Of a DNA stretch of 64,000 bases, positions 1,083-62,739 are shown one piece after another; positions within the stretch are counted from its first letter, which is position 1; each line of letters opens with the position of its first letter. Below the pieces are notes generated by a model. That model saw only the letters and a list, made by a program, of their open reading frames with translations. It made no database searches and was not told the DNA's origin. Source of the DNA: a virus. The DNA is taken from IMG/VR virus record IMGVR_UViG_3300042945_002173; one strand, given 5' to 3'. The position numbers were made by a program, and so were the translations under genes.

Positions 1083-1736
1083 ATGGCATTTATATACAAA
1101 ATAACTAATAATATAAATCAAAAATTTTACATAGGGTTTACAGGTCAAAAAATCCCTATGCGTAGATTTAATCAACACCTATCATCTGCTCGTTCTGAAA
1201 GAAAAAATAATCAACCTATTATCAGAGCAATAAGAAAATATGGGGAAGAAAATTTTTCTTTTGAAATCCTTTTGGAAGGAGAAGAAAAATTTTTACTCAA
1301 TGTAGAAGAACCTAGATTGATAAAAGAACTAAAACCAGAATATAATTCTACATTAGGTGGTGAGGGAATACTTGGATATAAGCATACAGAAGAGACGAAA
1401 ATAAAATGTGGACTATCAACACTAGGTAGAAAAGAAAGTGAAGAGCATAAAAGATGGAGAAGTCAAAAAATTAAAGAAGGTTGGAAAAATCAGAATGTAA
1501 ATAAAAAAATAGAAGTATCTAATAGCAAATTAAATTCCAATAGTCAAAGAATTGAAATTGAAATTGAAGGAATAAAATTTAAAAGTATTAATGATGCTGC
1601 TCGTTGGGCGATGGATAAATATGGTATAGGAAGGAACACCGCAATAAGATATATTAAAGAAGGTCGTTCATTTTCCAACAAAAAACAAATGAATAGAATT
1701 TATGATGGAAAATACAGGTCAACGAAGCACCTCTAA
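1083..1736 (+). mobile_element. Free-standing GIY-YIG homing endonuclease (Seg-like, NUMOD3-type repeats)
   Basis: IYKITN...FYIG, AIRKYG.ENF, YN.TLGGEG, HTEETK; sits directly in front of uvsW. Confidence 0.85.
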
Positions 1737-3198
1737 TGGGCACATTATTATTTCAAAAAAGAATGAAGTTTTTTTACAAGTAAAAGCAGAACCTCATATC
1801 TATTATGAACTAAGAGACGCATTCCAATTTGAAGTTCCTAACGCAAAATTTTCACCAGCATATAAAAATAAATGGTGGGATGGGCGAATTTATTTGTTTA
1901 ATGTTAATACTGGAGAAATATACTGTGGTTTGTTAGACAGATTAACTAAATTTTGTAACGACTACAATTATACTTATGAGTTTGTAAACAATAAGTTTTA
2001 TGGTCTTCCTTTTGAAGTCAATGAAATGATTTCAAAGGAAGGTGTAAAAGATTATATGACTTCTATTTGCAAGTATGCTCCCCGTGAGTACCAAGTTGAG
2101 GGAGTATACGACGCTTTAAAACATAATCGAAAGTTGTTGATATCTCCAACTGCCTCTGGAAAGTCGTTGATGATATATTCGATTGTCCGATATTACGTTG
2201 AGAAAGGACAAAATACTCTGATAGTCGTTCCGACGACATCCCTTGTAGAACAGATGTATAAAGACTTTGCAGATTATGGGTGGGATGTGGGTTCATTTTG
2301 CCACAAGATATATGCGGGTAAAGAAAGAGAAACGGACTCTCAGGTGATCATTACGACCTGGCAGTCCATCTACAAACTTCCCCGACAATATTTTTCAAGA
2401 TTTAATGTGGTCGTTGGAGATGAAGCACACCAGTTTAAATCAAAGTCATTAGTATCTATAATGACAAAACTTTCTGATGCAAAATATCGTTTTGGATTTA
2501 CAGGAACCCTTGATGGCACTCAGACACACAAATGGGTTTTAGAAGGTTTATTTGGTCCTTCATACAAAATCATCAGAACAGAAGAACTGATGCAGAAGGG
2601 TCACGTTGCCAAACTGGACATTAATATTCTTCTATTGAAACACCCACCAAATAAGTTTGAGACCTTTGAGGATGAGGTTCAGTATATTATCAATCACGAG
2701 AAACGCAATAAGTTTATCAAGAATCTTGCCCTAGATCTTAAAGGCAATACTCTGATTCTCTTTTCAAGAGTAGAGGGACACGGTCAACCTTTATACGATC
2801 TCATAAATAAGAGTATCGCAGAAGATCGCCACGTGTTCTTTGTTCACGGTGGTGTAGATACTGAGGACCGAGAAAAAGTCAGAGAAATTACTGAAAAAGA
2901 AAATAATGCAATCATCGTTGCTTCTTATGGCACTTTTTCTACTGGTATTAACATTAGAAATCTACATAATGTCATCTTTGCTTCCCCTAGTAAATCAAGA
3001 ATCAGAAATCTCCAATCAATCGGAAGGGTCCTAAGAAAAAGTGAAAATAAATCAAAAGCAACTCTATATGACATTGCCGATGATATCAGTTATAAATCAA
3101 GAAAAAATTATACTCTTAATCATCTAATAGAAAGAATAAAAGTTTATAACGAAGAAAACTTTAATTATGATATTGTAAACATACCGCTTAAAAACTAA
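1702..3198 (+). CDS. uvsW: UvsW SF2 DNA/RNA helicase
   Basis: SPTASGKS Walker A, DEAH, QSIGRVLR motif VI; start codon uncertain. Confidence 0.95.
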   Translation: MMENTGQRSTSNGHIIISKKNEVFLQVKAEPHIYYELRDAFQFEVPNAKFSPAYKNKWWDGRIYLFNVNTGEIYCGLLDRLTKFCNDYNYTYEFVNNKFYGLPFEVNEMISKEGVKDYMTSICKYAPREYQVEGVYDALKHNRKLLISPTASGKSLMIYSIVRYYVEKGQNTLIVVPTTSLVEQMYKDFADYGWDVGSFCHKIYAGKERETDSQVIITTWQSIYKLPRQYFSRFNVVVGDEAHQFKSKSLVSIMTKLSDAKYRFGFTGTLDGTQTHKWVLEGLFGPSYKIIRTEELMQKGHVAKLDINILLLKHPPNKFETFEDEVQYIINHEKRNKFIKNLALDLKGNTLILFSRVEGHGQPLYDLINKSIAEDRHVFFVHGGVDTEDREKVREITEKENNAIIVASYGTFSTGINIRNLHNVIFASPSKSRIRNLQSIGRVLRKSENKSKATLYDIADDISYKSRKNYTLNHLIERIKVYNEENFNYDIVNIPLKN

Positions 3199-3611
3199 TG
3201 GGAGAAGAGTTTTACGCAGCAATCAAATTAGTAACAGGTGAAGAAATATTTTCTCTAATATGTGTTGATGAGAATGATGGGGATCCTATCATAATTCTTC
3301 AAAATCCTGTCATAATGAAAGTTATTAATAATCATATAGGTCAATACGTAAAAGTAAAACCATGGATGGAAATACCATCTGATGATTTCTTTATTATAAA
3401 ATACGATAAGATCGTTACTATGACTGAAGTTAAAGAAAGTCAAATGATAACCTTCTATGAGAGATATCTTAATGAAGAAGATGTTGATATAGAACTGGAT
3501 GGTAAGGTAAAGATATCAAATAAGATGGGATATATCTCTTCTGTTGAAGATGCTAGAAAGAACTTAGAGAATATTTTTCGTAAAGATCTTAAAGATAATA
3601 AAGAAAGCTAG
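3198..3611 (+). CDS. Conserved cyanophage hypothetical protein (Sm-like, KLVTGEEI motif)
   Basis: Coupled to uvsW by TAATG overlap; usual position between uvsW and g55. Confidence 0.6.
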   Translation: MGEEFYAAIKLVTGEEIFSLICVDENDGDPIIILQNPVIMKVINNHIGQYVKVKPWMEIPSDDFFIIKYDKIVTMTEVKESQMITFYERYLNEEDVDIELDGKVKISNKMGYISSVEDARKNLENIFRKDLKDNKES

Positions 3612-3617
3612 AGTCTC

Positions 3618-3667
3618 ATCTTCAACGGGAACAAAGGGATTCTACTCATAATTTCGTATGTTGTCAA
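3618..3667 (-). promoter_or_regulatory. Antisense sigma70-type promoter with conserved leader (copy 1)
   Basis: Minus strand TTGACA-17nt-TAGAAT-CC-CTTTGTTCCCGTTGAAGAT; same element at 49184-49233. Confidence 0.65.
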
Positions 3668-3724
3668 GTCCTGAAAGTATGGTATAATATACATAACGAA
3701 AATTTATCTACAAAGACCGATGTT

Positions 3725-4252
3725 ATGTCCAAGAAGAAATCAGAACATTATGTAAACAACAAAGAGTTACTTGAAGCATTAATTGTTTATAGAACTAAAG
3801 TTGAAAAATCATACTTGAAGAAGTACGATAAAGATCTCACAAAGCAACCCAAAGAGGAAAGAGCAAAGCACTGGGAAGGTAAACCACCAATCTCTAATTA
3901 TCTGGGTGAGTGTTTCTTGAAAATCGCTACACATCTTTCATACAAACCAAACTTTGTGAATTATATGTTTAGAGATGATATGATCTCTGATGGTATTGAA
4001 AATTGTGTTCAATATATTCACAACTTTGATCCTGAGAAGTCTAAAAACCCCTTTGCTTACTTTACTCAAATTATTCACTATGCTTTTCTCCGTCGTATTC
4101 AAAAGGAGAAGAAGCAACTGGAAATCAAGACCAAGATCATTGAACGAACTGGTTTTGATGAGGTTATGATGGTTGACGATAGCTTGCTTTCTGGAAGCAG
4201 TTCGGACTATAATACAATCAAAGATAACGTTGCCTACAAAACTAACCGATGA
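3725..4252 (+). CDS. g55: Late sigma factor gp55
   Basis: HYVNNKE, KPNFVNY, DMISDGIENC, NPFAYFTQI motifs. Confidence 0.95.
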   Translation: MSKKKSEHYVNNKELLEALIVYRTKVEKSYLKKYDKDLTKQPKEERAKHWEGKPPISNYLGECFLKIATHLSYKPNFVNYMFRDDMISDGIENCVQYIHNFDPEKSKNPFAYFTQIIHYAFLRRIQKEKKQLEIKTKIIERTGFDEVMMVDDSLLSGSSSDYNTIKDNVAYKTNR

Positions 4253-11037: not shown

Positions 11038-13188
11038 ATGACTGTCCGCCACGAAATCAAGTCCCAACTTGCCAAACTTCTTGCCACCGAAGACCTTGTG
11101 GTTGAGCACAAGAAGGTGGAGACTGCCTGCTTCAACGTTCATACTCGTGTGTTGACTCTGCCGATGTGGGAAAAGGCAAGCAACACCGTCTATGACCTTT
11201 TGGTGGGTCACGAGGTCGGACACGCTCTCTATACGCCTGATGAGGATTGGTTGAAGGAGCACAAGATTCCGCCACAGTTTGTGAATGTGGTTGAGGATGC
11301 TCGCATTGAGAAACTGATGAAGCGCCGTTACGCTGGTCTCGCCAAGACTTTCTTCAACGGTTACAAAGAACTTGCTGACGATGATTTCTTTCAGATTGGT
11401 GATGACAATCTAGAAACTTATAATCTTGCCGATCGTGCAAACCTGTGGTTCAAGATCGGAAACTATATTGATATTCCGATTGAGCGCGGTGAAGAGACTG
11501 AGATTATCAATTTGATTGCTGATAGTGAGACTTTTGGTGATGTTCTGATTGCCGCAAAAGCACTGTATAAGTATTGTAAGCAAAAGCAACAGGAAGAAAC
11601 TAAAACTAAGATTGATAATTTGGAATCTCAAGATAGTGGTGCTACACAGCATCCTGTTTCGGATTTTATTGATCAGCAAGAAGGTGAGAATGATCAATCT
11701 GAAACTGATACTTCACAATCACCTGTTACCAGCGAAACTGAGCAGGAAAAAAAATCAACTAATTCTAGTGAAGGTGGTGAAAAGAATGAAGAACCAGAAG
11801 TCAAAACAATGGATTCTTTGGAAGAGGCATTGAAAGATCTTGTTAATAATGATGGTTATGAGAATGTCTATCTTGAACTTCCTCAACTTGATCTGAATAA
11901 AGTAATTGTTCCTAATAAGGAGATTCACGATAAGTGTAAAGAATCTTGGGATGGTTTTATTAAAGAACGTGAGTATACCTATGAAGGAATTTTTGGTGAA
12001 GTTGATAAGAAATTTGTAGAATTTAAACGGTCTGCTCAAAAGGAAGTTAATTATTTGGTAAAAGAGTTTGAATGTCGTAAGGCGGCAGATTCCTATGCTC
12101 GTGCCACAACTTCACGCACTGGTGTGTTGGATTGTTCAAAACTTCATACCTACAAATATAATGAAGATATTTTCAAGAAAGTAACCACTCTTGCCGATGG
12201 TAAGAATCACGGTCTGGTATTCATTCTTGATTGGTCTGGATCTATGCAGGATGTGATGATGGATACTGTCAAGCAACTTTTTAATCTTGTGTGGTTCTGC
12301 AAGAAAGTAAATATTCCTTTCGAAGTTTATGCTTTTACGACTGATTATCCTTTGGTGAAATACGATGATAATGGTAAAGCAACTATTCGTGAACTTTCCT
12401 ATAAAAAGAAAGATGGACTCATTCAAGTTGGCGAGTGGTTTTCTATGATGAACCTTCTTACCAGTAAGGTGAATGGTAAAACTTTGGATGAGCAGATGAA
12501 GAATATTTTTCGTCTTGCTGTTTCTTTCCGTTATAATTCTCACTGCTATTATGCTGCTCCTCTGGGTATGAGTCTTTCTGGAACTCCTTTGAACGAATCT
12601 TTGATTGCTCTGCATCAAATTCTTCCCAAATTCCAGAAAGAAAATAAACTTCAAAAAGTTCAGTGTGTAATTCTGACAGATGGTGAAGGTTGTCTTCTCA
12701 AATATCATCGTGAAGTTCAACGCCGATGGGAAGAAGATCCTTATATGGGAACTTCTCATATTGGTCCTAATGCCTTTATTCGTGATCGTAAAACAGGAAT
12801 AACTTATTCTTGTGATTGTGAGTATCACGAATTTACTGATATTCTTCTTCAAAATCTGAGAGATAAGTTTGTTGATATCAATTTCATTGGTATTCGTGTA
12901 CTTGAATCGCGTGATGCTGGATCTTTTATTCGTCGTTACTATGGATACTTTGGACCAGAATATGAAAAAGTAATGACTGCCTGGAAGAAAGAAAAGGCAT
13001 TCACGATTAAAAAGTCTGGTTATCATTCTTATTTTGGACTTTCTGCTGCAACTCTTTCGCAGGAATCTGAGTTTGAGGTTGCAGATGATGCCACAAAAGC
13101 ACAAATCAAATCTGCTTTTGTTAAGAGTTTGAAGACTAAAAAAATGAACAAGCGTATTCTTGGTGAGTTTGTTGAACTGGTTGCCTGA
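11038..13188 (+). CDS. CobT-like protein: HExxH metallopeptidase-like N-terminus plus vWA domain
   Basis: HEVGH, NVVEDARIE, DWSGSM MIDAS, LTDGEG; adjacent to a MoxR-type AAA+ gene. Confidence 0.8.
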   Translation: MTVRHEIKSQLAKLLATEDLVVEHKKVETACFNVHTRVLTLPMWEKASNTVYDLLVGHEVGHALYTPDEDWLKEHKIPPQFVNVVEDARIEKLMKRRYAGLAKTFFNGYKELADDDFFQIGDDNLETYNLADRANLWFKIGNYIDIPIERGEETEIINLIADSETFGDVLIAAKALYKYCKQKQQEETKTKIDNLESQDSGATQHPVSDFIDQQEGENDQSETDTSQSPVTSETEQEKKSTNSSEGGEKNEEPEVKTMDSLEEALKDLVNNDGYENVYLELPQLDLNKVIVPNKEIHDKCKESWDGFIKEREYTYEGIFGEVDKKFVEFKRSAQKEVNYLVKEFECRKAADSYARATTSRTGVLDCSKLHTYKYNEDIFKKVTTLADGKNHGLVFILDWSGSMQDVMMDTVKQLFNLVWFCKKVNIPFEVYAFTTDYPLVKYDDNGKATIRELSYKKKDGLIQVGEWFSMMNLLTSKVNGKTLDEQMKNIFRLAVSFRYNSHCYYAAPLGMSLSGTPLNESLIALHQILPKFQKENKLQKVQCVILTDGEGCLLKYHREVQRRWEEDPYMGTSHIGPNAFIRDRKTGITYSCDCEYHEFTDILLQNLRDKFVDINFIGIRVLESRDAGSFIRRYYGYFGPEYEKVMTAWKKEKAFTIKKSGYHSYFGLSAATLSQESEFEVADDATKAQIKSAFVKSLKTKKMNKRILGEFVELVA

Positions 13189-20065: not shown

Positions 20066-20163
20066 ATAGAATTGAATATCGTCGGCGCGGGGAGCACCTG
20101 GCAAAATCCAGGTTGACTCCCCCTTTTTTTCTTGCTATAATAGTAAAAGGATAGTGAAACCAA

Positions 20164-26981: not shown

Positions 26982-27054
26982 GGGGAATTAGCTCAGTTGG
27001 TAGAGCGCCTGCTTTGCAAGCAGGATGTCAGCGGTTCGAGTCCGCTATTCTCCA
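26982..27054 (+). tRNA. tRNA-Ala(TGC)
   Basis: Cloverleaf; CCTGC-TT-TGC-AA-GCAGG; GGTTCGAGTCC. Confidence 0.95.
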
Positions 27055-27057
27055 CTT

Positions 27058-27139
27058 GCCCAAATGGCGGAATTGGTAGACGCGCTGGGTTTAGGTTCCA
27101 GTAGAGTATTCTGTGGAGGTTCAAGTCCTCTTTTGGGCA
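27058..27139 (+). tRNA. tRNA-Leu(TAG)
   Basis: GCCCAAA/TTTGGGC acceptor stem, TAG anticodon, variable arm, GGTTCAAGTCC. Confidence 0.9.
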
Positions 27140-37122: not shown

Positions 37123-37806
37123 ATGTCTGGACGCATTTATCTAATAACCAATAAAATCAATAATAAAACTTATGTTGGAAAGACAATGAACTCTTTGAAA
37201 AAAAGATTTTATAGTCACTGCTATGATGCCACTAAAAGAAGTTCAACAACATATCTTCATCGGGCAATTAGAAAGTATGGAAAAGACAATTTTATTATTG
37301 AAGAAATTGAAAAATGTGAAGATAATTTAGGTTTTAGAGAAATGTTTTGGATTTCTAAATTAAAACCAAAATATAATCAAACTCTTGGTGGTGATGGAGG
37401 AATTCTTGGATATTCTCATACGAAAGATACAAGAAAACTTTTATCTTTAAAAAGAAAAGGAAAGTTTGTGGGACATAAAAATTCATTCTACAATCAAACA
37501 CATACCGAAGAACAAAAAGAAAAGTGGAGTAAAATGAGAAAGGGACAACCATCTCCTTGTGGATTTGCTGGAAAATCACATAAAGAAGAAAGTAAATCTA
37601 AAACTTCTCAAACACTAAAAAACAATCCAAACATAAAAAGAACCAAAGTATTCCAGTATGATATTGAAGGAAACTTTTTAAGAGAGTTTCAATCTATTAG
37701 TGATGCTGCTAAATTTGTAGAAACAAATCCTTCTAACATTAAATATACCTGTGAAGGAAAATTCAATCACTGTAAAGGATATAGGTGGAGTTATGTTAAA
37801 ATATAA
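37123..37806 (+). mobile_element. Free-standing GIY-YIG homing endonuclease (NUMOD3 + NUMOD1) between nrdA and nrdB
   Basis: IYLITN..N.K.YVG, AIRKYGKDNF, YNQTLGGDG, QYDIEGNFLREF.SI.DAA. Confidence 0.88.
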
Positions 37807-48205: not shown

Positions 48206-49150
48206 TTATGTATATGAATAATATCCAGATACAACTAAATCTCTAAGTCCTATATACAAATCATCTGACGGAGATTCCCAACTTCCATCAACATCCGATT
48301 GAACAAATATTACACCATTTCCTATTTTCTCATAAGCAGCAGTATATCCACTACCAAATTTATAAAGACCATAAGCACCATTTAATTCAACATAGTTTGA
48401 AGCACCACTGGTCATTTCCGGCATTAATGTACTTGAAGTTGCTTTTATGAGAGTTGTGGCACTATAAGCTTCATTTGAACCAGGATTTGTTAATCTCATA
48501 ACAGTTCCTAATAGTTCAAGAACTTGATTTGACTGGGTTTGATTTCCGCAGGATGTATGTTCTCCCCTAAACCAAACAACACCCCCATTTATAAGGTATT
48601 GATGAATAGCATCAATATTTTGCTGAACAGTTGCTACAGTATTTGGTATACTTCCACAAGCGGAATGATATCCAAAGATAACAACTCCATAATTTCCTAT
48701 TGTATTAATTGTAGCATCTTCAAGTACATTATTTCTTCTTCCCTGATCTCCACCACTGCCAGGTGCATTAGTTATTGCCCCCCATTTTTTATCATAAACA
48801 GTTTTTATGCAACCAGTAGAAATATCCTCCGTTGCTAATACATTACCCTCTATAACTATATTCTTCTTATTTTCAGTATCTGTGAATAAAACATCATAAA
48901 CATATCTTCCTGGTTTAATCTCTGCCGTTACCGTTGACGCTAACGATACTCTTATTCTTCCGTTTGCTCTATCAATGAATCCAACATTAAACTTTGCGGT
49001 TGGAGTCAAACTTTCTGGGTGCTTGCGGATATAAGAAGACGCTGCATATCCAACAAGATTCAAAGGAGTTCCATCAACATTATCCAAATAGAAGTCCCTT
49101 GAAAAATACTCCCCCGTATTGATAGTAATATTATTGACGTATACCGCCAT
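48206..49150 (-). CDS. BppU-like domain protein (paralog 3) with variable C-terminal domain
   Basis: MAVYVNNITIN...NLVGYAASSYIRKH...IKPGRYVYD; late promoter at about 49170. Confidence 0.6.
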   Translation of the reverse strand: MAVYVNNITINTGEYFSRDFYLDNVDGTPLNLVGYAASSYIRKHPESLTPTAKFNVGFIDRANGRIRVSLASTVTAEIKPGRYVYDVLFTDTENKKNIVIEGNVLATEDISTGCIKTVYDKKWGAITNAPGSGGDQGRRNNVLEDATINTIGNYGVVIFGYHSACGSIPNTVATVQQNIDAIHQYLINGGVVWFRGEHTSCGNQTQSNQVLELLGTVMRLTNPGSNEAYSATTLIKATSSTLMPEMTSGASNYVELNGAYGLYKFGSGYTAAYEKIGNGVIFVQSDVDGSWESPSDDLYIGLRDLVVSGYYSYT

Positions 49151-49183
49151 ATTATAACTCTTTATTGAATATTTATCAACCCC

Positions 49184-49233
49184 TTGACAAACACTCAAAA
49201 CATAAGTAGAATCGCTTTGTTCCCGTTGAAGAT
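49184..49233 (+). promoter_or_regulatory. Sigma70-type promoter with conserved leader (copy 2)
   Basis: TTGACA-17nt-TAGAAT-CG-CTTTGTTCCCGTTGAAGAT. Confidence 0.65.
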
Positions 49234-49261
49234 AAATAATAGCTCATAAAGATCTTATAGT

Positions 49262-49711
49262 ATGAGTTATGAAAACCCTTGGAGATTCAATGGGGAAATT
49301 TTTGAGTCTTCTGATATTCAAGATAATTTTGGTTTTGTATATCTTATATCTTGTAATAAGAATAATCGTAAATATTGGGGTAGGAAGTATTTTTGGTCTT
49401 ACCGCACACCAAAAGGTAAATCTAGAAGAGTTAAACAAGAATCTGATTGGAAGAAGTACTACGGATCTTGTCCAGAACTCAAAGAAGATATAAAAAAGTA
49501 TGGTAAAGAGTTTTTCAATAGAGAAATTATAAGTCTTCATAAGACAAAGGGTGATTGTAATTATGAAGAAACAAAACAACTTTTTCTAAATAATGTGTTG
49601 AAAGAATCTCTTGACGACGGATCGCCTGCGTACTACAATAGCAATATTCTAGGCCGCTATATGCGAAAAGATTATGGTAACTTTGGAACAGACTCTTCGA
49701 GAGACGCATGA
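49262..49711 (+). CDS. Short GIY-YIG-family nuclease conserved in T4-like phages
   Basis: GFVYLI...KYWGRK, ESDWKKYYGS, F.REI, YNSNI. Confidence 0.7.
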   Translation: MSYENPWRFNGEIFESSDIQDNFGFVYLISCNKNNRKYWGRKYFWSYRTPKGKSRRVKQESDWKKYYGSCPELKEDIKKYGKEFFNREIISLHKTKGDCNYEETKQLFLNNVLKESLDDGSPAYYNSNILGRYMRKDYGNFGTDSSRDA

Positions 49712-49862
49712 TTGGGCAGTTGACCGTATTCATACTCTCTGTGAGAAAAATATTGAAGATGCCCGTGCGATCCAAACCGAATTTTGTGAGTGGTTGGATC
49801 CTGAAATTGTAGAGCATGATATTTTCTCATTAGAATACATAGGAGAGGAAGATGACACTTGA
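49674..49862 (+). CDS. Hypothetical protein
   Basis: ORF overlapping both neighbours. Confidence 0.5.
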   Translation: MVTLEQTLRETHDWAVDRIHTLCEKNIEDARAIQTEFCEWLDPEIVEHDIFSLEYIGEEDDT

Positions 49863-50523
49863 CCTTCACAACTTTTTCAAGTATTACGACGAAAACAATT
49901 CAAATCACGTAGCAGCAGTTCAATGGTTAGAAGATAACCTTCCTGCTGAATTCTTAGATGATGCTGAGACTGATTGGATTGGAATGTATAGAACTAAACC
50001 ACCAACTCCAGAAGTTCTTGCAGTTCCCTACTTCAATCAAGTAGATAATTATAGAGATGCACACAGAACTTGCAATAGTTCATCGTGTGCTATGTGTCTT
50101 GCTTTCCTCAAACCAGGAAGCATTAAAGGTGATGATGAATATGTCAAGAAAGTATTTGCGATTGGCGATACGACTGACCATGCGGTACAGACAAAAGTTC
50201 TCGCAGGTTATGGTATTAAGTCACACTTTAGTTACAATCTTTCTTTTGCTGATATTGATAAGAGCCTTGATAGAGGTAAACCTGTTGTTATTGGTATTCT
50301 CCATCGTGGTTCTCTATCTGCTCCTACTGGTGGGCACATGTGTGTAGTCATTGGTAAGACACCAGATGGCAAAGGATATTACATCAACGATCCATATGGT
50401 TCTCTCAACGATAACTATACTGGTCCTGTAACGAATGGTAAGAAGACCATTTACACCAAAGCAGTTCTCAAGCACCGGTGGTGCCCAGGAGGCAATGATG
50501 GATGGGGAAGAATCTTCGATTAA
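49852..50523 (+). CDS. Peptidase C39-like protein (putative cell-wall peptidase)
   Basis: VPYFNQ, TCNSSSCAM, GGH..V..G, INDPYG. Confidence 0.75.
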   Translation: MTLDLHNFFKYYDENNSNHVAAVQWLEDNLPAEFLDDAETDWIGMYRTKPPTPEVLAVPYFNQVDNYRDAHRTCNSSSCAMCLAFLKPGSIKGDDEYVKKVFAIGDTTDHAVQTKVLAGYGIKSHFSYNLSFADIDKSLDRGKPVVIGILHRGSLSAPTGGHMCVVIGKTPDGKGYYINDPYGSLNDNYTGPVTNGKKTIYTKAVLKHRWCPGGNDGWGRIFD

Positions 50524-50621: not shown

Positions 50622-51293
50622 ATGGCAAGAATTGATCTACACAACTTTTTTAAATTTTACGACGAGAAAAACCCTAATCATGTAAAAGCAGTTCAGTGGT
50701 TGGAAGATAATTTACCAGTTAAGTATCTTGAAGATAATGTTGATTGGGCAGAAATTTATCGCGGAAAAAAGGGTAATGCGGCACCAGCATCAGCACCATC
50801 TGCTGCCGCTTCTGTATCTGGTGGTGACGATATGCCTATGATGGGTCTAAAACTCATCAAAGAGTTTGAAGGATGCCACCTTAAAGCATATCCAGATCCT
50901 CTGACTGGTGGACTTCCAATCACAATTGGTTGGGGTTCTACTCGTAAGAAGGATGGATCGCCATTTCATATGGGCGATACCATTACTCAGGCAGAAGCAG
51001 ATGAATTACTGATCAGTCAGTGTAAGAATCAGTTTCTTCCTTCACTTCGTAAGATCCCTCATTGGAATGAAATGTCAGATGGAAAAAGAGGCGCTCTGCT
51101 CAGCTTTGCTTATAATCTCGGCGCTGGTTTCTACGGTGGTGATAACTTTAATACTATTACTAAACGCCTAAAGAATAAAGAATGGGACTTAGTTCCCGAT
51201 GCTCTTTATCTCTATCGCAATCCTGGTTCAAATGTAGAAGCAGGTCTTGCTCGTAGAAGAAAGGCAGAAGGTGAAGCATGGAAAAAAGGATAA
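50622..51293 (+). CDS. GH24 lysozyme (endolysin)
   Basis: IKEFEG..L.AYPD...TIGWG, ALLSFAYNLG, GLARRR.AE. Confidence 0.9.
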   Translation: MARIDLHNFFKFYDEKNPNHVKAVQWLEDNLPVKYLEDNVDWAEIYRGKKGNAAPASAPSAAASVSGGDDMPMMGLKLIKEFEGCHLKAYPDPLTGGLPITIGWGSTRKKDGSPFHMGDTITQAEADELLISQCKNQFLPSLRKIPHWNEMSDGKRGALLSFAYNLGAGFYGGDNFNTITKRLKNKEWDLVPDALYLYRNPGSNVEAGLARRRKAEGEAWKKG

Positions 51294-51436: not shown

Positions 51437-53608
51437 ATGTCTTACGCTAAGAAGGCGCTTGTTTTAGCGTCTGCTCTTTTAATGGGAGCACCAACTGCAT
51501 TTGCAGATACTATTTCTGGTACAGATTTTGAGTCTGGAAATACCTCAGGTTGGAATACTGGAAATCAAACAGGAACATTAGACAGCACAATCACTGGGCA
51601 GGGAACTGGTGTTAGTGTTGTCGATAATCCAGTAATCTTCAATGCACCCTCTCACGGAGCAGTAGGAAGTCCAACTCTCCAAGATGGTTCTCCTAACCCA
51701 TACCACGCACCCGCAGTAACACCAACAACTTGGGAGTTTGCTCCTTATGGAGATGCTGGTGCTGCATTGCAACCAAATGGTCAAGCAACATTTAACCAAG
51801 CAACAGAAGCACTTGGATTAACTGCGGCAGAAAACCAAGCAATCAAAGATCTTCTCATCCAACAACAACAAGCATCTGGATTAGGAAATCCAAATCCAAC
51901 TGATGCTGCTTGGATTACAAAGTCAGTGACTTTGCAAACTGGAACAGTTTATACAATGTCTTGGAACTACATTGGAACTGATTATGTTCCTTTCAATGAT
52001 GGTTCTATTACATCACTTGTTTATCAAGGAACAGGTTCATCTCCAACAGTAACAGTTAATAATCAACTTCAAAACTATGCACTGCTTGGGTTTACTAATC
52101 CTGGAACTGGTGACTATTCAACTGGAACTTATGGTTCTACTGGATGGCAGTATTCAACATATCAAGTAGGTGCTGATGGAGATTATCTCTTAGGATTTGC
52201 AGTATTCAACCTCGGAGACACTGCATTATCACCAGTTCTCTTAGTTGATAGTCAGCCTGGAACTACAACACAGAATGGTCAAGCATTTACACCTGTTGCT
52301 CCAAACAATCCAGATGCACCATCTGTTGATGAAGTAGCACCAACCCCAACTCCTGAACCTACACCAGAACCAGAACCCACTCCAACACCTGAACCAGAAC
52401 CTACCCCAGAGCCCACACCAGAACCAACCCCTGATCCAACTCCAACTCCTGAACCTACCCCAGAGCCCACACCAGAACCTACTCCTGAACCCACACCAGA
52501 ACCTACTCCTGAACCTACACCTGAGCCCACACCAGAACCTACTCCTGAGCCCACACCTGATCCCACACCAGAACCCACTCCTGAACCAGAATCTCCAACA
52601 TTATTAAACTCTGTAACTGTTCCTGCACCAGGACTTCCAGTTGTTGTTACTACTGAGGTTACTCATACAGCATCTGAAAAAGATGGAGTTCAAAAGATTA
52701 GAAGAGATTTTGCAACTACAAGTCAAACTCCTTTATTACAGCAAGATACTTATAGTGATGGAACTGTTATAAGTTCATTACTTCTTTCTGTTGATACAAA
52801 CAATACTCACGATGTTCTTTCTGGACGTATTGATCAGCACGAAGTTTTAGATAAGATTGGTGGTGGATTACAAAATCTTTTCATTCACGAACCATCTCAA
52901 CCAACCACAGATAAAGTAAGAGTATTCAGCAACAATTATTATGCTTGGTCTTATGGTGACTATGGATACACTGGTAAGTCGTTGATTATTGGTGGTGGAT
53001 TAGAAATTGATATCAAACCAACTTGGACTATTGGTGGTCAGTATAATAATGTGAATATTGATTTAGGTGGTGTTGATAGTACTTCTAGTCTTGTTAAGGG
53101 TCATTATGGTTTCTTTAATATGTTCCGTGGAAATACATTCTCACTCTTAACTAATGCTGGTTTCTCTCAGAACAAATATAATGTATCAAGAAATGTTCAG
53201 GGTATCTTTAATAATGAAAGTTCAACACAAGGAAAAGAATGGTTTGTAAATAACAGATTATTCTGGCATCTCAATAAGAACATAACTTCATTTGTTGGAT
53301 ATACCGTTGGTAATTACCAGAGAGATGGTTTTACTGAAACTGGTTCTATTCAATCAAGAAGAACCGTAGATACTATAAACAAAACTTCACATTCTGGTGA
53401 GGTTGGTCTAAATATTTCGCATCGTTTTGGTGGTAAGAAGAAGGATTTATTCGGCATAACTGTCGGTGGTTCTTATGAAACCAGCGGAATGATCGAGGCA
53501 AATGCTTCTGTTGATTATAAGGAAATGATAATTATTGAAGGAATTCATCAAATTAATGATGGGGTTTCTAACACAGCAGTATCTGCAAAGGTTAAATTTA
53601 AGTTCTAA
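51437..53608 (+). CDS. Autotransporter-like outer-membrane protein with Pro-rich linker
   Basis: Signal peptide, (PEPT)n stalk, amphipathic beta-strand C-terminal domain ending VKFKF. Confidence 0.65.
52339..52590 (+). repeat. Coding tandem repeat (PEPT/PTPE)n
   Basis: About 12-nt units such as CCTGAACCTACA / CCAGAACCCACT. Confidence 0.9.
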
Positions 53609-58564: not shown

Positions 58565-58633
58565 CAAACTGAATAGGTGAGGGGGGCTTGACAGATGCCC
58601 TCCTCCCATCTATAATAAACAAGTGATTCAATT

Positions 58634-58707
58634 GGACCAGTAACTCAGTGGACAAGAGTATCCGCCTTCTAAGCGGTTAGCCGTAGGTTCGAATCCTACC
58701 TGGTCCG
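58634..58707 (+). tRNA. tRNA-Arg(TCT)
   Basis: Cloverleaf; CCGC-CT-TCT-AA-GCGG; promoter TTGACA-17-TATAAT at 58588-58616. Confidence 0.92.
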
Positions 58708-58734
58708 TTGGAGATTTATTCTCCAAATTTATAA

Positions 58735-58806
58735 TCCACAATGGCGCAGCGGTAGCGCAGATGACTGTTAATCATTTGGTCCCTGGTTCGAATCCAGGTT
58801 GTGGAG
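58735..58806 (+). tRNA. tRNA-Asn(GTT)
   Basis: TCCACAA/TTGTGGA acceptor stem; GTT anticodon. Confidence 0.92.
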
Positions 58807-58886
58807 TAGGGAGAACTAGAAATGTCTGGGACTTCCTCTAAATCCTAAGTTTACTTAGGTCGGGGATTTGATCACCCCCGCTAGTT

Positions 58887-58958
58887 GCCCTTGTAGCTCA
58901 GTGGTAGAGCGCGGCTTTTGTAAAGCCGATGTCGCAAGTTCAAATCTTGTCGGGGGCT
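58887..58958 (+). tRNA. tRNA-Thr(TGT)
   Basis: CGGCT-TT-TGT-AA-AGCCG. Confidence 0.9.
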
Positions 58959-59012
58959 TGACATAATATTCATTATGTCTTATACTTTACAAGTCCGTGT
59001 GAAGTGAAGTGC

Positions 59013-59084
59013 TGAGAGTGAAGCCAAAAGTAAGGCACCCCGACAAGGGATACAGTAGAAGGATGCGAAACCTTCCACTCTCAC
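59013..59084 (+). ncRNA. tRNA-like RNA with degenerate anticodon arm
   Basis: TGAGAGTG/CACTCTCA stem, GCC/GGC arm, GAAGG/CCTTC T-like arm; upstream promoter TTGACA-17-TATACT. Confidence 0.45.
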
Positions 59085-59087
59085 ATT

Positions 59088-59159
59088 GCGGAGTTAGTTC
59101 AGTGGTAGAACGCTATCCTTCCAAGTTAGATGTCGTCGGTTCGAATCCGATACTCCGCT
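59088..59159 (+). tRNA. tRNA-Gly(TCC)
   Basis: GCGGAGT/ACTCCGC acceptor stem; TCC anticodon. Confidence 0.92.
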
Positions 59160-59280
59160 TATAAAACCAAAAAGCTTGACTGATCCCAAAGAAAATGTTA
59201 AGATAAATACCGTGATCAATCGTGCCGCAACTACTTGCACGATTTTCACTATGTCGTTTAGTACTAAAAACAAATTTTTT

Positions 59281-60774
59281 ATGAAACTCAAACAACTGAT
59301 GCTTGCACCTGTTGCTCTGGGAATGGTTGCTCCTGTTGCTGCGAATGCCGCAGATCTGAATATGGCAGCAGTCAACCAATACTCTTCTGAGCAGGTTACA
59401 AGTGTCTCACAACTGTCTGATGTTCAACCTTCGGATTGGGCATATCAGGCACTCAGCAACCTTGTAGAGCGTTATGGTTGCGTTGCTGGTTATCCTAACG
59501 GCACCTATGGTGGTGGTAAGGCAATGACCCGATTTGAGGCAGCAGCACTTCTGAATGCTTGCCTTGACCGTGTAACCGAAGTTACTGATGAACTTCAACG
59601 TCTTGCAAAGGAGTTTGCTGATGAACTTGCAGTAATTCGTGGTCGTGTAGATAAACTGGAAGCAAAAGTGGGTGCTCTGGAAGCAACTCAATTCTCCACC
59701 ACTACCAAACTGAAAGGTGAAGCATCTTTCGTTCTTGGTGGTGTTGATAATGCTTGGGTTCCTGGTAAGGATGCCAGTACCAATGTAGGCAATACTGCTT
59801 TCAATTACGATCTTCGTATCAATCTTGATACTTCTTTCACTGGAAAGGATCTTCTTCGCACTCGTCTGCGTTCTGGTAATTTCTCTTCTCAACCCTTTGG
59901 TTCCAGTTCTTCACTGTTCAAACTGGATAAGGCAGAGAGCACTGCTGATGTAGTTAAACTGGATCGTCTGTATTATAGTTTCCCTGCTCTTGCTAAGGGT
60001 GTAACTCTGACTGCTGGTGCTCTGGTTCGTAACACTGAGATGACCTGGATTCCTTCTGCTTATAAGTCGGATGTTCTGGACTTCTTCCAACTTGCTGGTG
60101 CTCCTGGTGTCTACAACAAGGCAACTGGTTCTGGTTTTGGTGCTCAATGGGTGCAAGGTAAGAAAGGTTTTGTTGCTGGTCTGAACTATGTTGCACAAGG
60201 TGGTTCTGATTCCACCAAAGGTGAGTTTAACGAAAAAGGTGCTCTGAACACTCTTGCTCAGATTGGTTACCGTGCTCCTAATTATGGTGTTGCATTCGGT
60301 TATCGTTATGGTACTGAAGGCACTCGTGTTCGCACCTTCAATGGTGTTCTGGGTTCTTCTGGTGCTCTTGCTCCTGGTCAAACCTCTAATGGTTATGCTC
60401 TGAGTGCTTACTGGCAACCTTCCAAGTCTGGCATCATTCCTTCTGTGAGTGGTGGTTATGGTTGGAATACTGTAAGTCTGAATGCCGAAGGTGAAGCAAC
60501 TCCTAATGGCGCTACCGATTCGCAAACTTGGTACGCTGGTCTCCAGTGGTCTGATGTACTTGCTAAGGGTAATTCTGCTGGTTTTGCTATCGGTCAGCCT
60601 GGTAATGCAGAAGGACTTACTAAGGAAGCAACTATGTGGGAACTGTTCTATAAGTATCGTGTGAGCGACAACATCACTGTTACTCCTGCAGTGTTCTATG
60701 TTTCGAACAATCAGGCACTTTCGGATACCTCTTCCAACTATGGTGGTGTAATTCAAACTACCTTCCGTTTCTGA
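59281..60774 (+). CDS. Cyanobacterial SLH-domain porin (Som/OprB-like)
   Basis: Signal peptide, SDVQPSDWAYQAL..LVERYGC SLH, QFSTTTKL.GE, C-terminal TTFRF. Confidence 0.92.
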   Translation: MKLKQLMLAPVALGMVAPVAANAADLNMAAVNQYSSEQVTSVSQLSDVQPSDWAYQALSNLVERYGCVAGYPNGTYGGGKAMTRFEAAALLNACLDRVTEVTDELQRLAKEFADELAVIRGRVDKLEAKVGALEATQFSTTTKLKGEASFVLGGVDNAWVPGKDASTNVGNTAFNYDLRINLDTSFTGKDLLRTRLRSGNFSSQPFGSSSSLFKLDKAESTADVVKLDRLYYSFPALAKGVTLTAGALVRNTEMTWIPSAYKSDVLDFFQLAGAPGVYNKATGSGFGAQWVQGKKGFVAGLNYVAQGGSDSTKGEFNEKGALNTLAQIGYRAPNYGVAFGYRYGTEGTRVRTFNGVLGSSGALAPGQTSNGYALSAYWQPSKSGIIPSVSGGYGWNTVSLNAEGEATPNGATDSQTWYAGLQWSDVLAKGNSAGFAIGQPGNAEGLTKEATMWELFYKYRVSDNITVTPAVFYVSNNQALSDTSSNYGGVIQTTFRF

Positions 60775-60796
60775 TAAACCACTCATAAGTTGAGTG

Positions 60797-60824
60797 AAAG
60801 CACCCCAGAAAGGGGTGCTTTTTT
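60797..60824 (+). terminator. Intrinsic terminator
   Basis: AAAGCACCCC-AGAAA-GGGGTGCTTT plus T run. Confidence 0.85.
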
Positions 60825-60834
60825 ATGAAACCAG

Positions 60835-60867
60835 AACCTTAACCAAATCTTAGTGGACTTTAAGGTT
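60835..60867 (+). promoter_or_regulatory. Putative Pho box upstream of pstS
   Basis: CTTAACCA-AAT-CTTAGTGG-AC-TTTAAGGT, roughly 11-bp periodic PyTTAA repeats. Confidence 0.5.
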
Positions 60868-60918
60868 CTCTTCCAGTATTATTACTTACGAAGTCAATTC
60901 ACTTCCAAAAAACTTTTT

Positions 60919-61881
60919 ATGAAACTCAAAAATCTTATTGCTATTGGTCTGGTTGCTGCTCCTGCTGCTGCTCTTGCTGGACCTGCTCTGAATGGTGCTG
61001 GAGCTACGTTTCCCGCCCCAATTTATCAACGATGGTTCCAGGATTTTGCTTCGTCTACTGGAAATCGTGTTAATTACCAATCTGTTGGTTCTGGTGCTGG
61101 TGTTCGTCAGTTCATCGCTGGGACCGTCGATTTTGGTGCGTCTGATGAACCGATCAAAGCATCGGAAGCAGCAAAGGTGAAGCGTGGTGTCGTTCAAATC
61201 CCTATGGTGGGTGGAACGATTGCTGTCGCTTATAACAAACCTGGATGCAAACTAAAACTGACCCAGAAGCAAACCGTTGATGTATTCTCTGGACGCATTA
61301 AGGATTGGAAAGCACTTGGTTGCTCCGCTGGTCCTATTCAAGTGGTGTATCGTTCTGATGGATCTGGAACTACCTTTGCATTCACCAACTCTCTGGATGC
61401 ATTCGGTGGTTGGGCTCCTGGTGTTGGTAAGGCAGTCAAGTGGCCTACTGGTGTTGGTTCAAAAGGTAACGAAGGTGTTGCTGGAACCATCAAGAACACT
61501 GCTGGTGCGATTGGCTATGTGAATACTGGATTTGTTCGTGCTAACAAACTCCAAGCAGCAGTTCTTCAAAACAAGGCAGGTAAGTTTGTTGGACCTTCTG
61601 CTGCAACTGGTTCTGCTGCTCTGAATGGTATTACTCTGGATGCAAACCTTGCTGGCGAGAACCCCAATCCTGCTGGTGTAAATGCATATCCCATTTCTAC
61701 TTTGACTTGGATTCTTGCTTATAAGAAAGGTAATGGTGCAAAGGCAGATGATATTCGTGCCGCTATTAACTATGCTCTAAGCACAAAGGCACAATCTATT
61801 GCTGATGATCTTGGATATGTTCCTCTTTCTGGTAGCGTTCTGAACAAAGCACGTCTTGCTGTTGGTCGCATCGGTAACTGA
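60919..61881 (+). CDS. pstS: Phosphate ABC transporter substrate-binding protein
   Basis: GAGATFPAP.Y, YQSVGSGAG, DFGASD, RSDGSGTT, GNEGV. Confidence 0.96.
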   Translation: MKLKNLIAIGLVAAPAAALAGPALNGAGATFPAPIYQRWFQDFASSTGNRVNYQSVGSGAGVRQFIAGTVDFGASDEPIKASEAAKVKRGVVQIPMVGGTIAVAYNKPGCKLKLTQKQTVDVFSGRIKDWKALGCSAGPIQVVYRSDGSGTTFAFTNSLDAFGGWAPGVGKAVKWPTGVGSKGNEGVAGTIKNTAGAIGYVNTGFVRANKLQAAVLQNKAGKFVGPSAATGSAALNGITLDANLAGENPNPAGVNAYPISTLTWILAYKKGNGAKADDIRAAINYALSTKAQSIADDLGYVPLSGSVLNKARLAVGRIGN

Positions 61882-62266
61882 CATACATAGGGGGGTTGAC
61901 AAAACCCCCTTTTTAATGTATTATAGATAACGAGTTAGGAGGTTTATGTCTCTTATTTCCCAAACAGACCGTCAAATGGTCATTGAGGCGCTTGAATACT
62001 ATATTCATAAACTAAAAGAAGATAATTGTACAGAAGCATCAATTTATGCATATAATACACTTCTTCGTTGGATAGAACTGGAGTACTTTAAGAATGAAAA
62101 TTAATCTCTGGTTCTGCATTGAAATGAATCAATGGCGTTGGACTCTGACAGATGACCATCGTCCAATTATCAAACAAGAATCTGGGCAAAGGGAAAATCT
62201 CCGTGACGCTATGAATGATGTAGCAAATACAGTTGAATATCTTATGAGTCAATCTTGACTTTTTAT

Positions 62267-62338
62267 GGGCGATTGGCGCAGCGGTAGCGCAGCTGCTTTA
62301 CACGCAGACGGTCATTGGTTCGAATCCGATATTGCCCA
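62267..62338 (+). tRNA. tRNA-Val(TAC)
   Basis: CTGC-TT-TAC-AC-GCAG; GGTTCGAATCC. Confidence 0.92.
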
Positions 62339-62383
62339 TTATAAATATTTAAAAAAATTGAAGAAGTATAACTGATTATACAA

Positions 62384-62641
62384 ATGGAAAATTTAAGAAT
62401 CAGATGCCGCTCCTGTGGAAAGGAGTTAGAGGGGCATCCTACGAAAACTGTGTCTTGTGGTTGCTCTAATATGGCATCCATTCGTGGTGATAAGATTTCA
62501 GCAGTTGACTTATCTGCTGTTATTATGTTAAACTCTTATGGTCATAAATCAAAACCTGGTGTTCTTACTAACGAAGATCTTGCCTTCCAAGAGGCAAGAA
62601 GACAACGTAAAGTAAGACGTTTAGATTTTGAAGTCCGTTGA
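62384..62641 (+). CDS. Zn-ribbon hypothetical protein
   Basis: CRSCG...SCGCSN; TATAAATA upstream. Confidence 0.6.
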   Translation: MENLRIRCRSCGKELEGHPTKTVSCGCSNMASIRGDKISAVDLSAVIMLNSYGHKSKPGVLTNEDLAFQEARRQRKVRRLDFEVR

Positions 62642-62652
62642 GGACTTTTATT

Positions 62653-62739
62653 GGAAGCGTGGCAGAGTCCGGTTTATTGCGTTTGTCTTGAAAACAAATG
62701 AGGGTAAGACCTCCACTGGTTCGAATCCAGTCGCTTCCG
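62653..62739 (+). tRNA. tRNA-Ser(TGA)
   Basis: GGAAGCG/CGCTTCC acceptor stem; TTTGT-CT-TGA-AA-ACAAA; long variable arm. Confidence 0.92.

Follow-up and report, generated by a model that had tools for sequence, protein, structure and literature searches.

The homing-type endonuclease genes I-TevI, I-TevII, I-TevIII, segB and mobE produce a masked early RNA and, from a nested promoter, an open late RNA (PMC2988022). A second arrangement found in T4-type phages is the promoter-early stem-loop cassette (PeSL), a repeated unit in which a stem-loop is embedded in a strong early promoter and which mediates gene shuffling (PMC2839356, PMC4122927). An antisense RNA, CfrI, has been detected experimentally in the cyanophage S-PM2 (Millard et al. 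2010, as summarized in PMC2984593). T4-like cyanophages lack MotA and AsiA, and what sets the timing of their genes instead is an open question (PMC2984593). These phages are among the most abundant viruses of the sea.

Here we describe a promoter-leader element that occurs twice in a T4-like cyanomyovirus, beside the genes for the late sigma factor gp55 and for a SegE-like GIY-YIG nuclease (copies 1 and 2, respectively). From its anatomy, conservation and pairing potential, including some compensatory changes, we infer its promoter activity, start sites and timing. Copy 2 is probably a duplicated sigma-70-type early-promoter cassette, read by the host RNA polymerase and joined to a T4-type translational mask on the nuclease. 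A search of the literature for this element, the sequence itself included, returned no description.

Genomic context

The window, 64,000 nt of IMG/VR record IMGVR_UViG_3300042945_002173, comes from a T4-like cyanomyovirus. Its nearest isolates are the Synechococcus phages S-SRM01 (~80% identity) and S-SKS1, and the Prochlorococcus phage P-SSM2. At its left lie uvsW, an Sm-like gene, gp55 and gp47, followed by a long plus-strand replication block; plus-strand genes start again at 49262, after a short minus-strand tail-fibre-like block (Table 1).

Table 1. Positions of the two copies of the element, their parts and their neighbours in the window
Feature	Position	Strand	Details
uvsW	1702–3198		left part of the window
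Sm-like gene	3198–3611		between uvsW and gp55; PF16243
Copy 1	3618–3667	−	-35 at 3667–3662; -10 at 3644–3639; predicted +1 G3632; leader to 3618
gp55 promoter	3661–3688	+	TTGTCA-16-TGgTATAAT; back-to-back with copy 1
gp55	3725–4252		left part of the window
Tail-fibre-like block	44.0–49.15 kb	−	short
Late-promoter box of divergent tail-fibre-like gene	49170–49177	−	GATAAATA; ATG at 49150; phrog_3304
Copy 2, sigma-70-type early promoter	49184–49212	+	-35 TTGACA 49184–49189; 17-nt spacer; -10 TAGAAT 49207–49212
Copy 2, start-site module	49213–49233	+	CGC discriminator 49213–49215; TTT; predicted +1 G49219
Copy 2, transcribed start	to 49233	+	GTTCCCGTTGAAGAT; 19-mer 49215–49233 identical to copy 1
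Late-promoter box	49231–49238	+	GATAAATA; overlaps the last 3 nt of the repeat
Inner hairpin	49239–49270	+	ATAGCTC 49239–49245 with GAGTTAT 49264–49270
SegE-like GIY-YIG nuclease gene	49262–49711	+	149 aa; Pfam PF19835, E 1.4e-51, residues 7–129
Outer helix, 3' arm	49286–49296	+	TTCAATGGGGA; codons F-N-G-E; partner is leader 49220–49230

Two database names in these gene neighbourhoods are doubtful. Phage records and phrog_471 label the gene at 3198–3611 'methylamine utilization'; its Pfam match is Sm_like PF16243 (E 6e-11), and judging by this match its product may be an RNA-binding protein. The SegE-like GIY-YIG family is labelled 'NAD synthetase' by phrog_447 and by the RefSeq record of S-SKS1 (positions 2559–3020 of locus L001), and Pfam finds a GIY-YIG nuclease domain only. 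Further GIY-YIG homing-endonuclease genes of the window are at 1083–1736, overlapping the start of uvsW, and at 37123–37806, between nrdA and nrdB, the latter with NUMOD1 and NUMOD3 domains. Neither carries the promoter-leader element.

Other repeats lie to the right of the nuclease. The segments 49859–49962 and 50632–50735 are 74% identical as DNA and encode an N-terminal module (MxxDLHNFFKxYDExN...) that is duplicated in common between a C39-like peptidase and a phage lysozyme (genes 49852–50523 and 50622–51293), as if one targeting or anchoring domain served two lytic enzymes. A long repeat with a 12-nt period at 52315–52623 forms a (T/E)P-rich linker within a 723-aa, secreted-looking protein (51437–53608). 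The eight tRNA genes are in two clusters (26982–27139 and 58634–62739), and early-type promoters precede several tRNA genes of the right-hand one. Three further early-type promoters (20113–20141, 58588–58616 and 61896–61924) have a stem of a G-run and a C-run with a T-run around the -35, for example GGGGGGTTGACAAAACCCCCTTTTT, and by their sequence are compact terminator-promoter composites of the PeSL kind.

The repeated promoter

The initial annotation had reported a second copy of the element in opposite orientation some 45.5 kb from the first. This was confirmed: the longest inverted repeat of the window has its arms at 3618–3668 (minus) and 49183–49233 (plus), each of 51 nt and 80% complementary. 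The 19-mer CTTTGTTCCCGTTGAAGAT occurs exactly twice (3618–3636, minus; 49215–49233, plus; 0.01 expected by chance), and the two copies agree at 28 of the 29 positions of a 29-mer. Within the window TTGACA-N17-TAGAAT is likewise found only at copies 1 and 2 (0.04 expected), and a scan with the covariance model of the family (see below) returned these two alone, with E-values of 1e-14 and 3e-12. A candidate third site of the 19-mer at 11350 has three mismatches, lies inside a coding sequence and is without a promoter; it was set aside as chance.

The repeated unit consists of a near-consensus sigma-70-type promoter, with 11 of 12 consensus matches in both copies, a discriminator and the first 15 transcribed bases counted from the predicted start; G49219 (copy 2) and G3632 (copy 1) were placed via promoter geometry. 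Its earlier description as 'promoter-plus-leader' captured a real repeat but left the main feature, the near-consensus promoter, unnamed.

Copy 2 had further been described as flanked by two divergent late promoters. The late motif reported for cyanophages is NATAAATA (PMC2984593), and GATAAATA boxes are indeed present on both strands. The box alone is not enriched in the window (7 found against 4.1 expected; 15 of 100 shuffles reach this number). The plus-strand box is supported by its near-invariance across 64 related nuclease leaders, and the sole basis for the minus-strand box is that it precedes the ATG at 49150 by 20 nt. This box is a neighbour outside the repeat, not conserved beside the element in S-SKS1 or S-SRM01. 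Neither the pair of divergent late promoters nor the strand switch is a conserved part of the element. The position of copy 2 at a strand-switch point, also pointed out earlier, is incidental; the genes upstream of the element in these two phages are co-directional with it.

A predicted translational mask on the nuclease start

The plus-strand late box directly adjoins the 5' arm of the inner hairpin, whose 3' arm contains the G of the ATG (49262–49264) and codons 2–3. In the 64 related nuclease leaders this hairpin is the only RNAalifold consensus structure, with 97.8% of cells paired against 35–42% when the partner is slid, and the Ser codon, AGT or AGC, retains G:U or G:C pairing. An RNA from 49245 onward, after the late box, the late start being placed by T4 spacing, is predicted to form no hairpin on the AUG.

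A second helix is predicted to enclose the inner hairpin in this window, in which leader and nuclease codons 9–12 form 11 bp. Its 6-bp core, GUUGAA/UUCAAU, is kept in 85–98% of the 64 sequences, and in 7 of them a synonymous TTC-to-TTT change swaps G:C for A:U; the distal part is paired in just about half. Since the helices hardly vary, the two together are not significant against column shuffles (63/500). Roughly half of the nuclease leaders form the outer helix poorly or not at all, those of the S-SKS1 type being entirely without it, and nonetheless retain the leader, which counts against the mask.

As read from the sequence, the order early promoter, leader, late box, hairpin, AUG would be the known T4 design: a homing-type endonuclease lies downstream, the initiation region is predicted to be occluded and a late RNA would be without the 5' arm. 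In the mechanism that we propose, a SegE-like GIY-YIG nuclease module, itself mobile, would obtain its early transcript from the cassette at 49184–49233. In this RNA the leader would pair with codons 9–12 and the inner hairpin would bury the AUG, so that the nuclease would be transcribed early and not translated. From the late promoter at 49231–49238, transcription would begin no earlier than the 5' arm of the hairpin, which would leave the late mRNA open and translatable. This scheme would be that of I-TevI, segB and mobE of the T-even phages. It had been argued that the nuclease, having its own late promoter, has no need of the leader. That argument is not supported, as an early RNA that is deliberately untranslatable belongs to the known T4 design, and the leader itself is predicted to form the 11-bp outer helix.

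The 3-nt overlap between the repeat and the late box also bears on a very different reading. The operator of I-TevI in T4 overlaps the late promoter of that gene, and 15 of its 20 positions agree with the homing site (PMC2988022). By analogy the 29-mer might be a binding site of the nuclease, copy 2 serving as an I-TevI-like autorepressor operator over the late promoter and copy 1 as a cleavage or homing site. The match of the copies at all positions but one, and the insertion of the nuclease gene directly behind the element in either orientation, would suit such a role. However, the 149-aa protein has its catalytic domain at residues 7–129 and no other Pfam domain, and a search of Pfam for a DNA-binding domain found no NUMOD, zinc-finger or helix-turn-helix. 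The gene is also 45 kb from its supposed target, and the gp55 copy, near-universal as it is, changes in sequence from phage to phage and in most genomes is unlike the nuclease copy. We regard this role as very improbable.

The nuclease cassette in related phages

Unbiased samples of 79 gp55 loci and 80 nuclease loci were drawn via neighbouring proteins. The element, with the same promoter architecture as copy 2, precedes the SegE-like GIY-YIG nuclease in 78 of the 80 nuclease loci, and the remaining two are cut by contig ends. The nuclease behind the element occurs in either orientation among relatives; the S-SRM01 protein is 46% identical to that of the window. Among loci with a C39 peptidase gene at least 95% identical to the window's, the cassette is present in 42 and absent from 24, the latter having other upstream genes. 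Given this presence and absence at near-identical loci and the two orientations, the cassette behaves as a mobile promoter-plus-nuclease module. In one locus (L074, IMGVR_UViG_3300042691_007870) a forward nuclease remnant of ~100 nt lies behind the element and is followed by a complete inverted copy, which suggests turnover of the nuclease at this site.

In relatives with co-directional upstream genes, the nuclease copy has a G/C stem and a T-run around its -35 (GGGGCTTGACAAGTCCCCTTTTTT). Copy 2 reads CCCCTTGACAAAC at this place and has neither a stem nor a terminator-like site, since the gene upstream of it is divergent.

Distribution of the element

A pattern scan of uncultured viral contigs for TTTGTYYCCGTTRAAGAT found at least 118 loci, a sample biased by the pattern; among the matches listed, 112 of 120 leader matches stand behind TTGACA-N17-TAGAMT. 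The family consensus is TAGAMT-NNN-TTTG-N6-TTGAAGAT. Besides the gp55 and nuclease loci there is a third locus type, in which the element precedes a ~411-aa helicase and a terminator-like hairpin and another TATAAT come after the leader.

A covariance model was built from 74 variants. It finds three copies in S-SKS1, four in S-SRM01, two each in S-PM2 and S-SCSM1, and one strong match each in Syn9 (123675–123738, minus) and P-SSM2, and gave no match in T4; the named and uncultured genomes have one to four copies each. A single sequence model thereby marks three conserved loci in T4-like cyanophage genomes. In Rfam 15 the window matches tRNAs only, neither copy of the element giving a match, and six helicase-type loci gave nothing credible (E up to 1).

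The locus types resemble one another from the -35 as far as about +30. Within this stretch lies TAGCT, whose complement at gp55 forms the final codon and stop of the Sm-like gene, an indication that the copy at gp55 came first and gave rise to the others by duplication. The element would then form a small conserved family of early-promoter cassettes in T4-like cyanophages, probably spread by duplication of the gp55-antisense copy. Strict concerted evolution of copies within a genome was considered and rejected, as it fails in S-SRM01 and in the genomes G003–G007 and G009; concerted copies do hold in this window, between two S-SKS1 copies and in S-PM2.

Conservation of the 19-mer in relatives, on which the initial annotation had made its reading depend, is thus extensive: the leader persists across hundreds of related contigs, at loci of three kinds that are unrelated to one another. 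It is therefore more than an accidental mRNA leader. To this extent the suggestion that the element itself is the function stands, and the accompanying claim that the leader is not needed is unsupported.

The shared 5' end might act as RNA instead, as the seed of regulatory RNAs that pair in trans with the coding starts of the nuclease and helicase and restrain their translation. The source would be either the gp55-antisense RNA or a short, terminated transcript of the helicase copy, where the terminator-like hairpin and second TATAAT make an RNA of ~65 nt plausible. Each of the three locus types has a complement of the leader core GUUGAA at a distance of 65–105 nt downstream (nuclease, UUCAAU; helicase, UUCAAC; antisense to the Sm-like gene, AUCUUCAAC), and the window's two copies share identical 5' ends. 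However, leader changes (GCUAGGG, GCUAGCG) are not followed by the nuclease codons, and pairing shrinks to 6 bp; the mean leader-target duplex energy is -10.6 kcal/mol against -10.2 and -9.5 kcal/mol in controls; the gp55-antisense RNA has no conserved fold or supported helix; and no Rfam family matches. We consider a trans-acting seed unlikely. Pairing of the leader with downstream sequence was also dropped as a general reason for its conservation, its mean duplex energy being barely better than that of controls.

The gp55 locus

Copy 1 is predicted to drive antisense transcription through the Sm-like gene towards and into uvsW. In 78 of the 79 unbiased gp55 loci a promoter of this type, likewise antisense, lies between the Sm-like gene and gp55, and positional homologues of copy 1 are found in Syn9, S-PM2, P-SSM2, S-SKS1, S-SRM01 and S-SCSM1. 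The promoter of gp55 itself is back-to-back with it; TTGTCA-N15-18-TANNNT is present in 67 of the 79 loci, and 54 of these also have an extended TG. Since the antisense promoter and that of gp55 have overlapping -35 hexamers on opposite strands, the two should compete. The near-universal gp55-antisense copy looks new. Its predicted transcript overlaps the Sm-like gene.

RNAalifold predicts no pairs in the gp55-antisense RNA, and no ORF lies downstream. A 10-bp helix seen in this window (GUUGAAGAUG with CAUCUUCAAC) was dropped as a general feature: across 49 relatives 68.6% is paired, shuffles giving 67.3%, and 42 of the 49 have a U-U mismatch. The translational mask does not explain the presence of the same module at gp55.

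In the Pelagibacter phage HTVC008M (NC_020484.1, ~80237–80300; locus L355, 400–460, minus) an antisense TTGACA-17-TATAAT stands beside gp55, followed by a palindrome, AGGCATGTGCCT, centred on the predicted start. With this positional analogue, the back-to-back arrangement at gp55 extends beyond the cyanophages.

The antisense transcript of copy 1, the masked RNA of copy 2 and the terminated RNA of the helicase type would all be non-productive RNAs from early-type promoters, and any of them might be an R-loop primer of replication, as at T4 oriF and oriG, the copies being origins that flank the block of replication genes. Copies 1 and 2 point outward from a 45-kb replication module, as do those of G001, one of the genomes with several copies, and of S-SKS1. 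Copy 1 adjoins uvsW, the T4 homologue of which removes origin R-loops. The transcribed starts of many relatives are very G-rich and C-poor, for example GTTAGGGTTGAAGAGAGGGG, and a hairpin of the non-template strand tolerates G-T pairs. However, the transcribed starts of the window's copies are not G-rich, GC skew follows gene orientation only, and T4 has no match to the covariance model. Syn9, moreover, has only one origin predicted by skew (PMC2984593). In the GC skew and in the G-richness of both starts, no sign was seen of an RNA that stays hybridised to the DNA. We found no support for a role as origin, and no evidence against it either; such a role seems improbable.

The start-site module

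Conserved at every locus type are both promoter hexamers, the TTTG of the predicted start and, from +8 to +15, TTGAAGAT. Bases +4 to +7 vary, as do the three or four that follow the -10, yet the two stretches stay complementary to each other. The arms at -6 to -3 and +4 to +7 covary as ACCT/AGGT, CGCT/AGCG, CACC/GGTG, AACC/GGTT and ACCC/GGGT, and longer pairs are AAACC/GGTTT, AACTC/GGGTT, ATCTC/GAGGT and, in P-SSM4, the 7-bp ACTGTAT/ATACAGT. HTVC008M has AGGCA-TG-TGCCT at the corresponding place beside gp55. Exchanging left arms between elements weakens the fold of the top strand from -2.26 to -1.24 kcal/mol (0 of 500 permutations), and the covariation score is 0.33 against 0.15 in shuffles (0/500). 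Within one genome (G001) the arm pairs differ from copy to copy, and each still matches. Judged by its G-T pairs, the fold is favoured on the top (non-template) strand, and the discriminator has a G+C content of 66%, compared with 41% at other TTGACA-N17-TANNNT sites.

With its 5' arm placed before the predicted RNA start, the inverted repeat cannot be a feature of the element's own transcript or of an mRNA leader, unless promoter geometry misplaces the start. The covarying, start-centred inverted repeat looks new, and the conservation of the start-site module at three kinds of locus is not explained by the mask mechanism. Our best guess is that the module is a promoter-level control feature common to the promoter class.

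More specifically, the module could be a regulatory element at the level of DNA or polymerase, composed of the GC-rich discriminator and the start-centred inverted repeat, which would form in the non-template strand of the open complex or be bound by a factor. It could confer special timing or sensitivity, such as early shut-off, stringent-like control or dependence on supercoiling; at gp55, with its overlapping -35 hexamers, it could act in an early-to-late switch through promoter competition or through antisense interference with the Sm-like gene and uvsW. The covarying arms with both tests, the matching pairs within G001, the HTVC008M repeat and the discriminator composition all speak for it. 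The stems, however, are just 2–7 bp long. The large AGG..CC class has 2 bp only, and both window copies are essentially without a hairpin (0.0 kcal/mol), the inverted repeat being almost absent. Most covarying cells derive from two states, which could reflect few inherited events, and no candidate binding protein was identified. We are aware of no sigma-70 promoter under the control of a non-template hairpin centred on its start. We hold this specific role to be rather unlikely; it is compatible with the mask at copy 2 and would place function in the promoter module.

A broader possibility, which we put forward tentatively, is an undescribed promoter class of T4-like cyanophages and a related pelagiphage, defined by a start-centred inverted repeat followed by TTGAAGAT. 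Its ancestral copy would fire antisense and back-to-back with the gp55 promoter; the module, and not a leader RNA encoded by it, would be a device for early-to-late control or an origin primer, and would have been copied to nuclease and helicase genes. A near-universal, strong antisense promoter that overlaps the -35 of gp55 and has a structured start site is a testable candidate for part of the timing circuit.

Other explanations of the conserved bases were tried and discarded. Pairing of AGAC (-10) with GTCT (+1 to +4) is lost in TAGAAT variants and was treated as a lineage correlation. Sites of host factors (NtcA GTA-N8-TAC, Pho box, LexA box and RpaB HLR1 repeats) do not fit the conserved bases. 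A leader mini-ORF, AUG-AGA-NNN-UAG, exists only where the leader reads GATG, and hence is not conserved.

In the loci collected, about a quarter of the TTGACA-N17-TANNNT sites outside the family have a hairpin directly after the -10, for example GGGGGT..ACCCCC or AGCATC-AAA-GATGCT. Repeats centred on the start may therefore be more general among the early promoters of cyanophages.

Comparison with known systems

An account of copy 2 by known kinds of element, an early-promoter cassette plus a T4-type mask, is a good first approximation. As in the masks of the T-even phages (I-TevI, I-TevII, I-TevIII and segB) and of Aeh1 (mobE), an early promoter lies upstream of a GIY-YIG gene, a hairpin hides the initiation region and a late promoter yields an RNA without the 5' arm (PMC2988022). 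Copy 2 differs in that the AUG itself is buried and not the Shine-Dalgarno sequence, in that a second, outer helix uses a leader common to unrelated loci, and in that the upstream promoter is part of the cassette and not of the host gene; the timing at copy 2 is inferred. A core regulatory cassette has here been reused by a mobile nuclease.

The T4 R-loop origins oriF(uvsY) and oriG(34) resemble the element in having a pre-late promoter whose transcript need not encode protein. They use MotA-dependent middle promoters, unlike the promoter class of the element.

Like CfrI, copy 1 and the inverted-nuclease variants are predicted to give an RNA antisense to the 3' end of a gene next to a homing-endonuclease gene. 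CfrI belongs to another locus (psbA/F-CphI) with no common sequence, and the RNA of copy 1 is a prediction.

The PeSLs of RB49/phi1 and KVP40/nt-1 share with the element a near-consensus sigma-70 promoter that is repeated within a genome and tied to variable or mobile genes; copy 2, with its 11 of 12 matches, has the strong sigma-70-like promoter of a PeSL. The nuclease copies of relatives also share the G/C stem-loop and T-run around the -35, and the presence or absence between near-identical flanks. The presence and absence of the cassette and the inversion of the nuclease would fit shuffling between copies. In contrast to PeSLs, which number dozens in hyperplastic regions, the element has one to four copies per genome at fixed loci, and what is conserved in it follows the -10, comprising the start site together with the initial 15 transcribed nt. 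Copy 2 is without the G/C stem-loop, or terminator stem, that defines a PeSL and stops transcription arriving from upstream, and another copy of the element is an ORF-less antisense promoter inside a core gene block. With these differences, the PeSL is the closest described concept for the copy 2 cassette.
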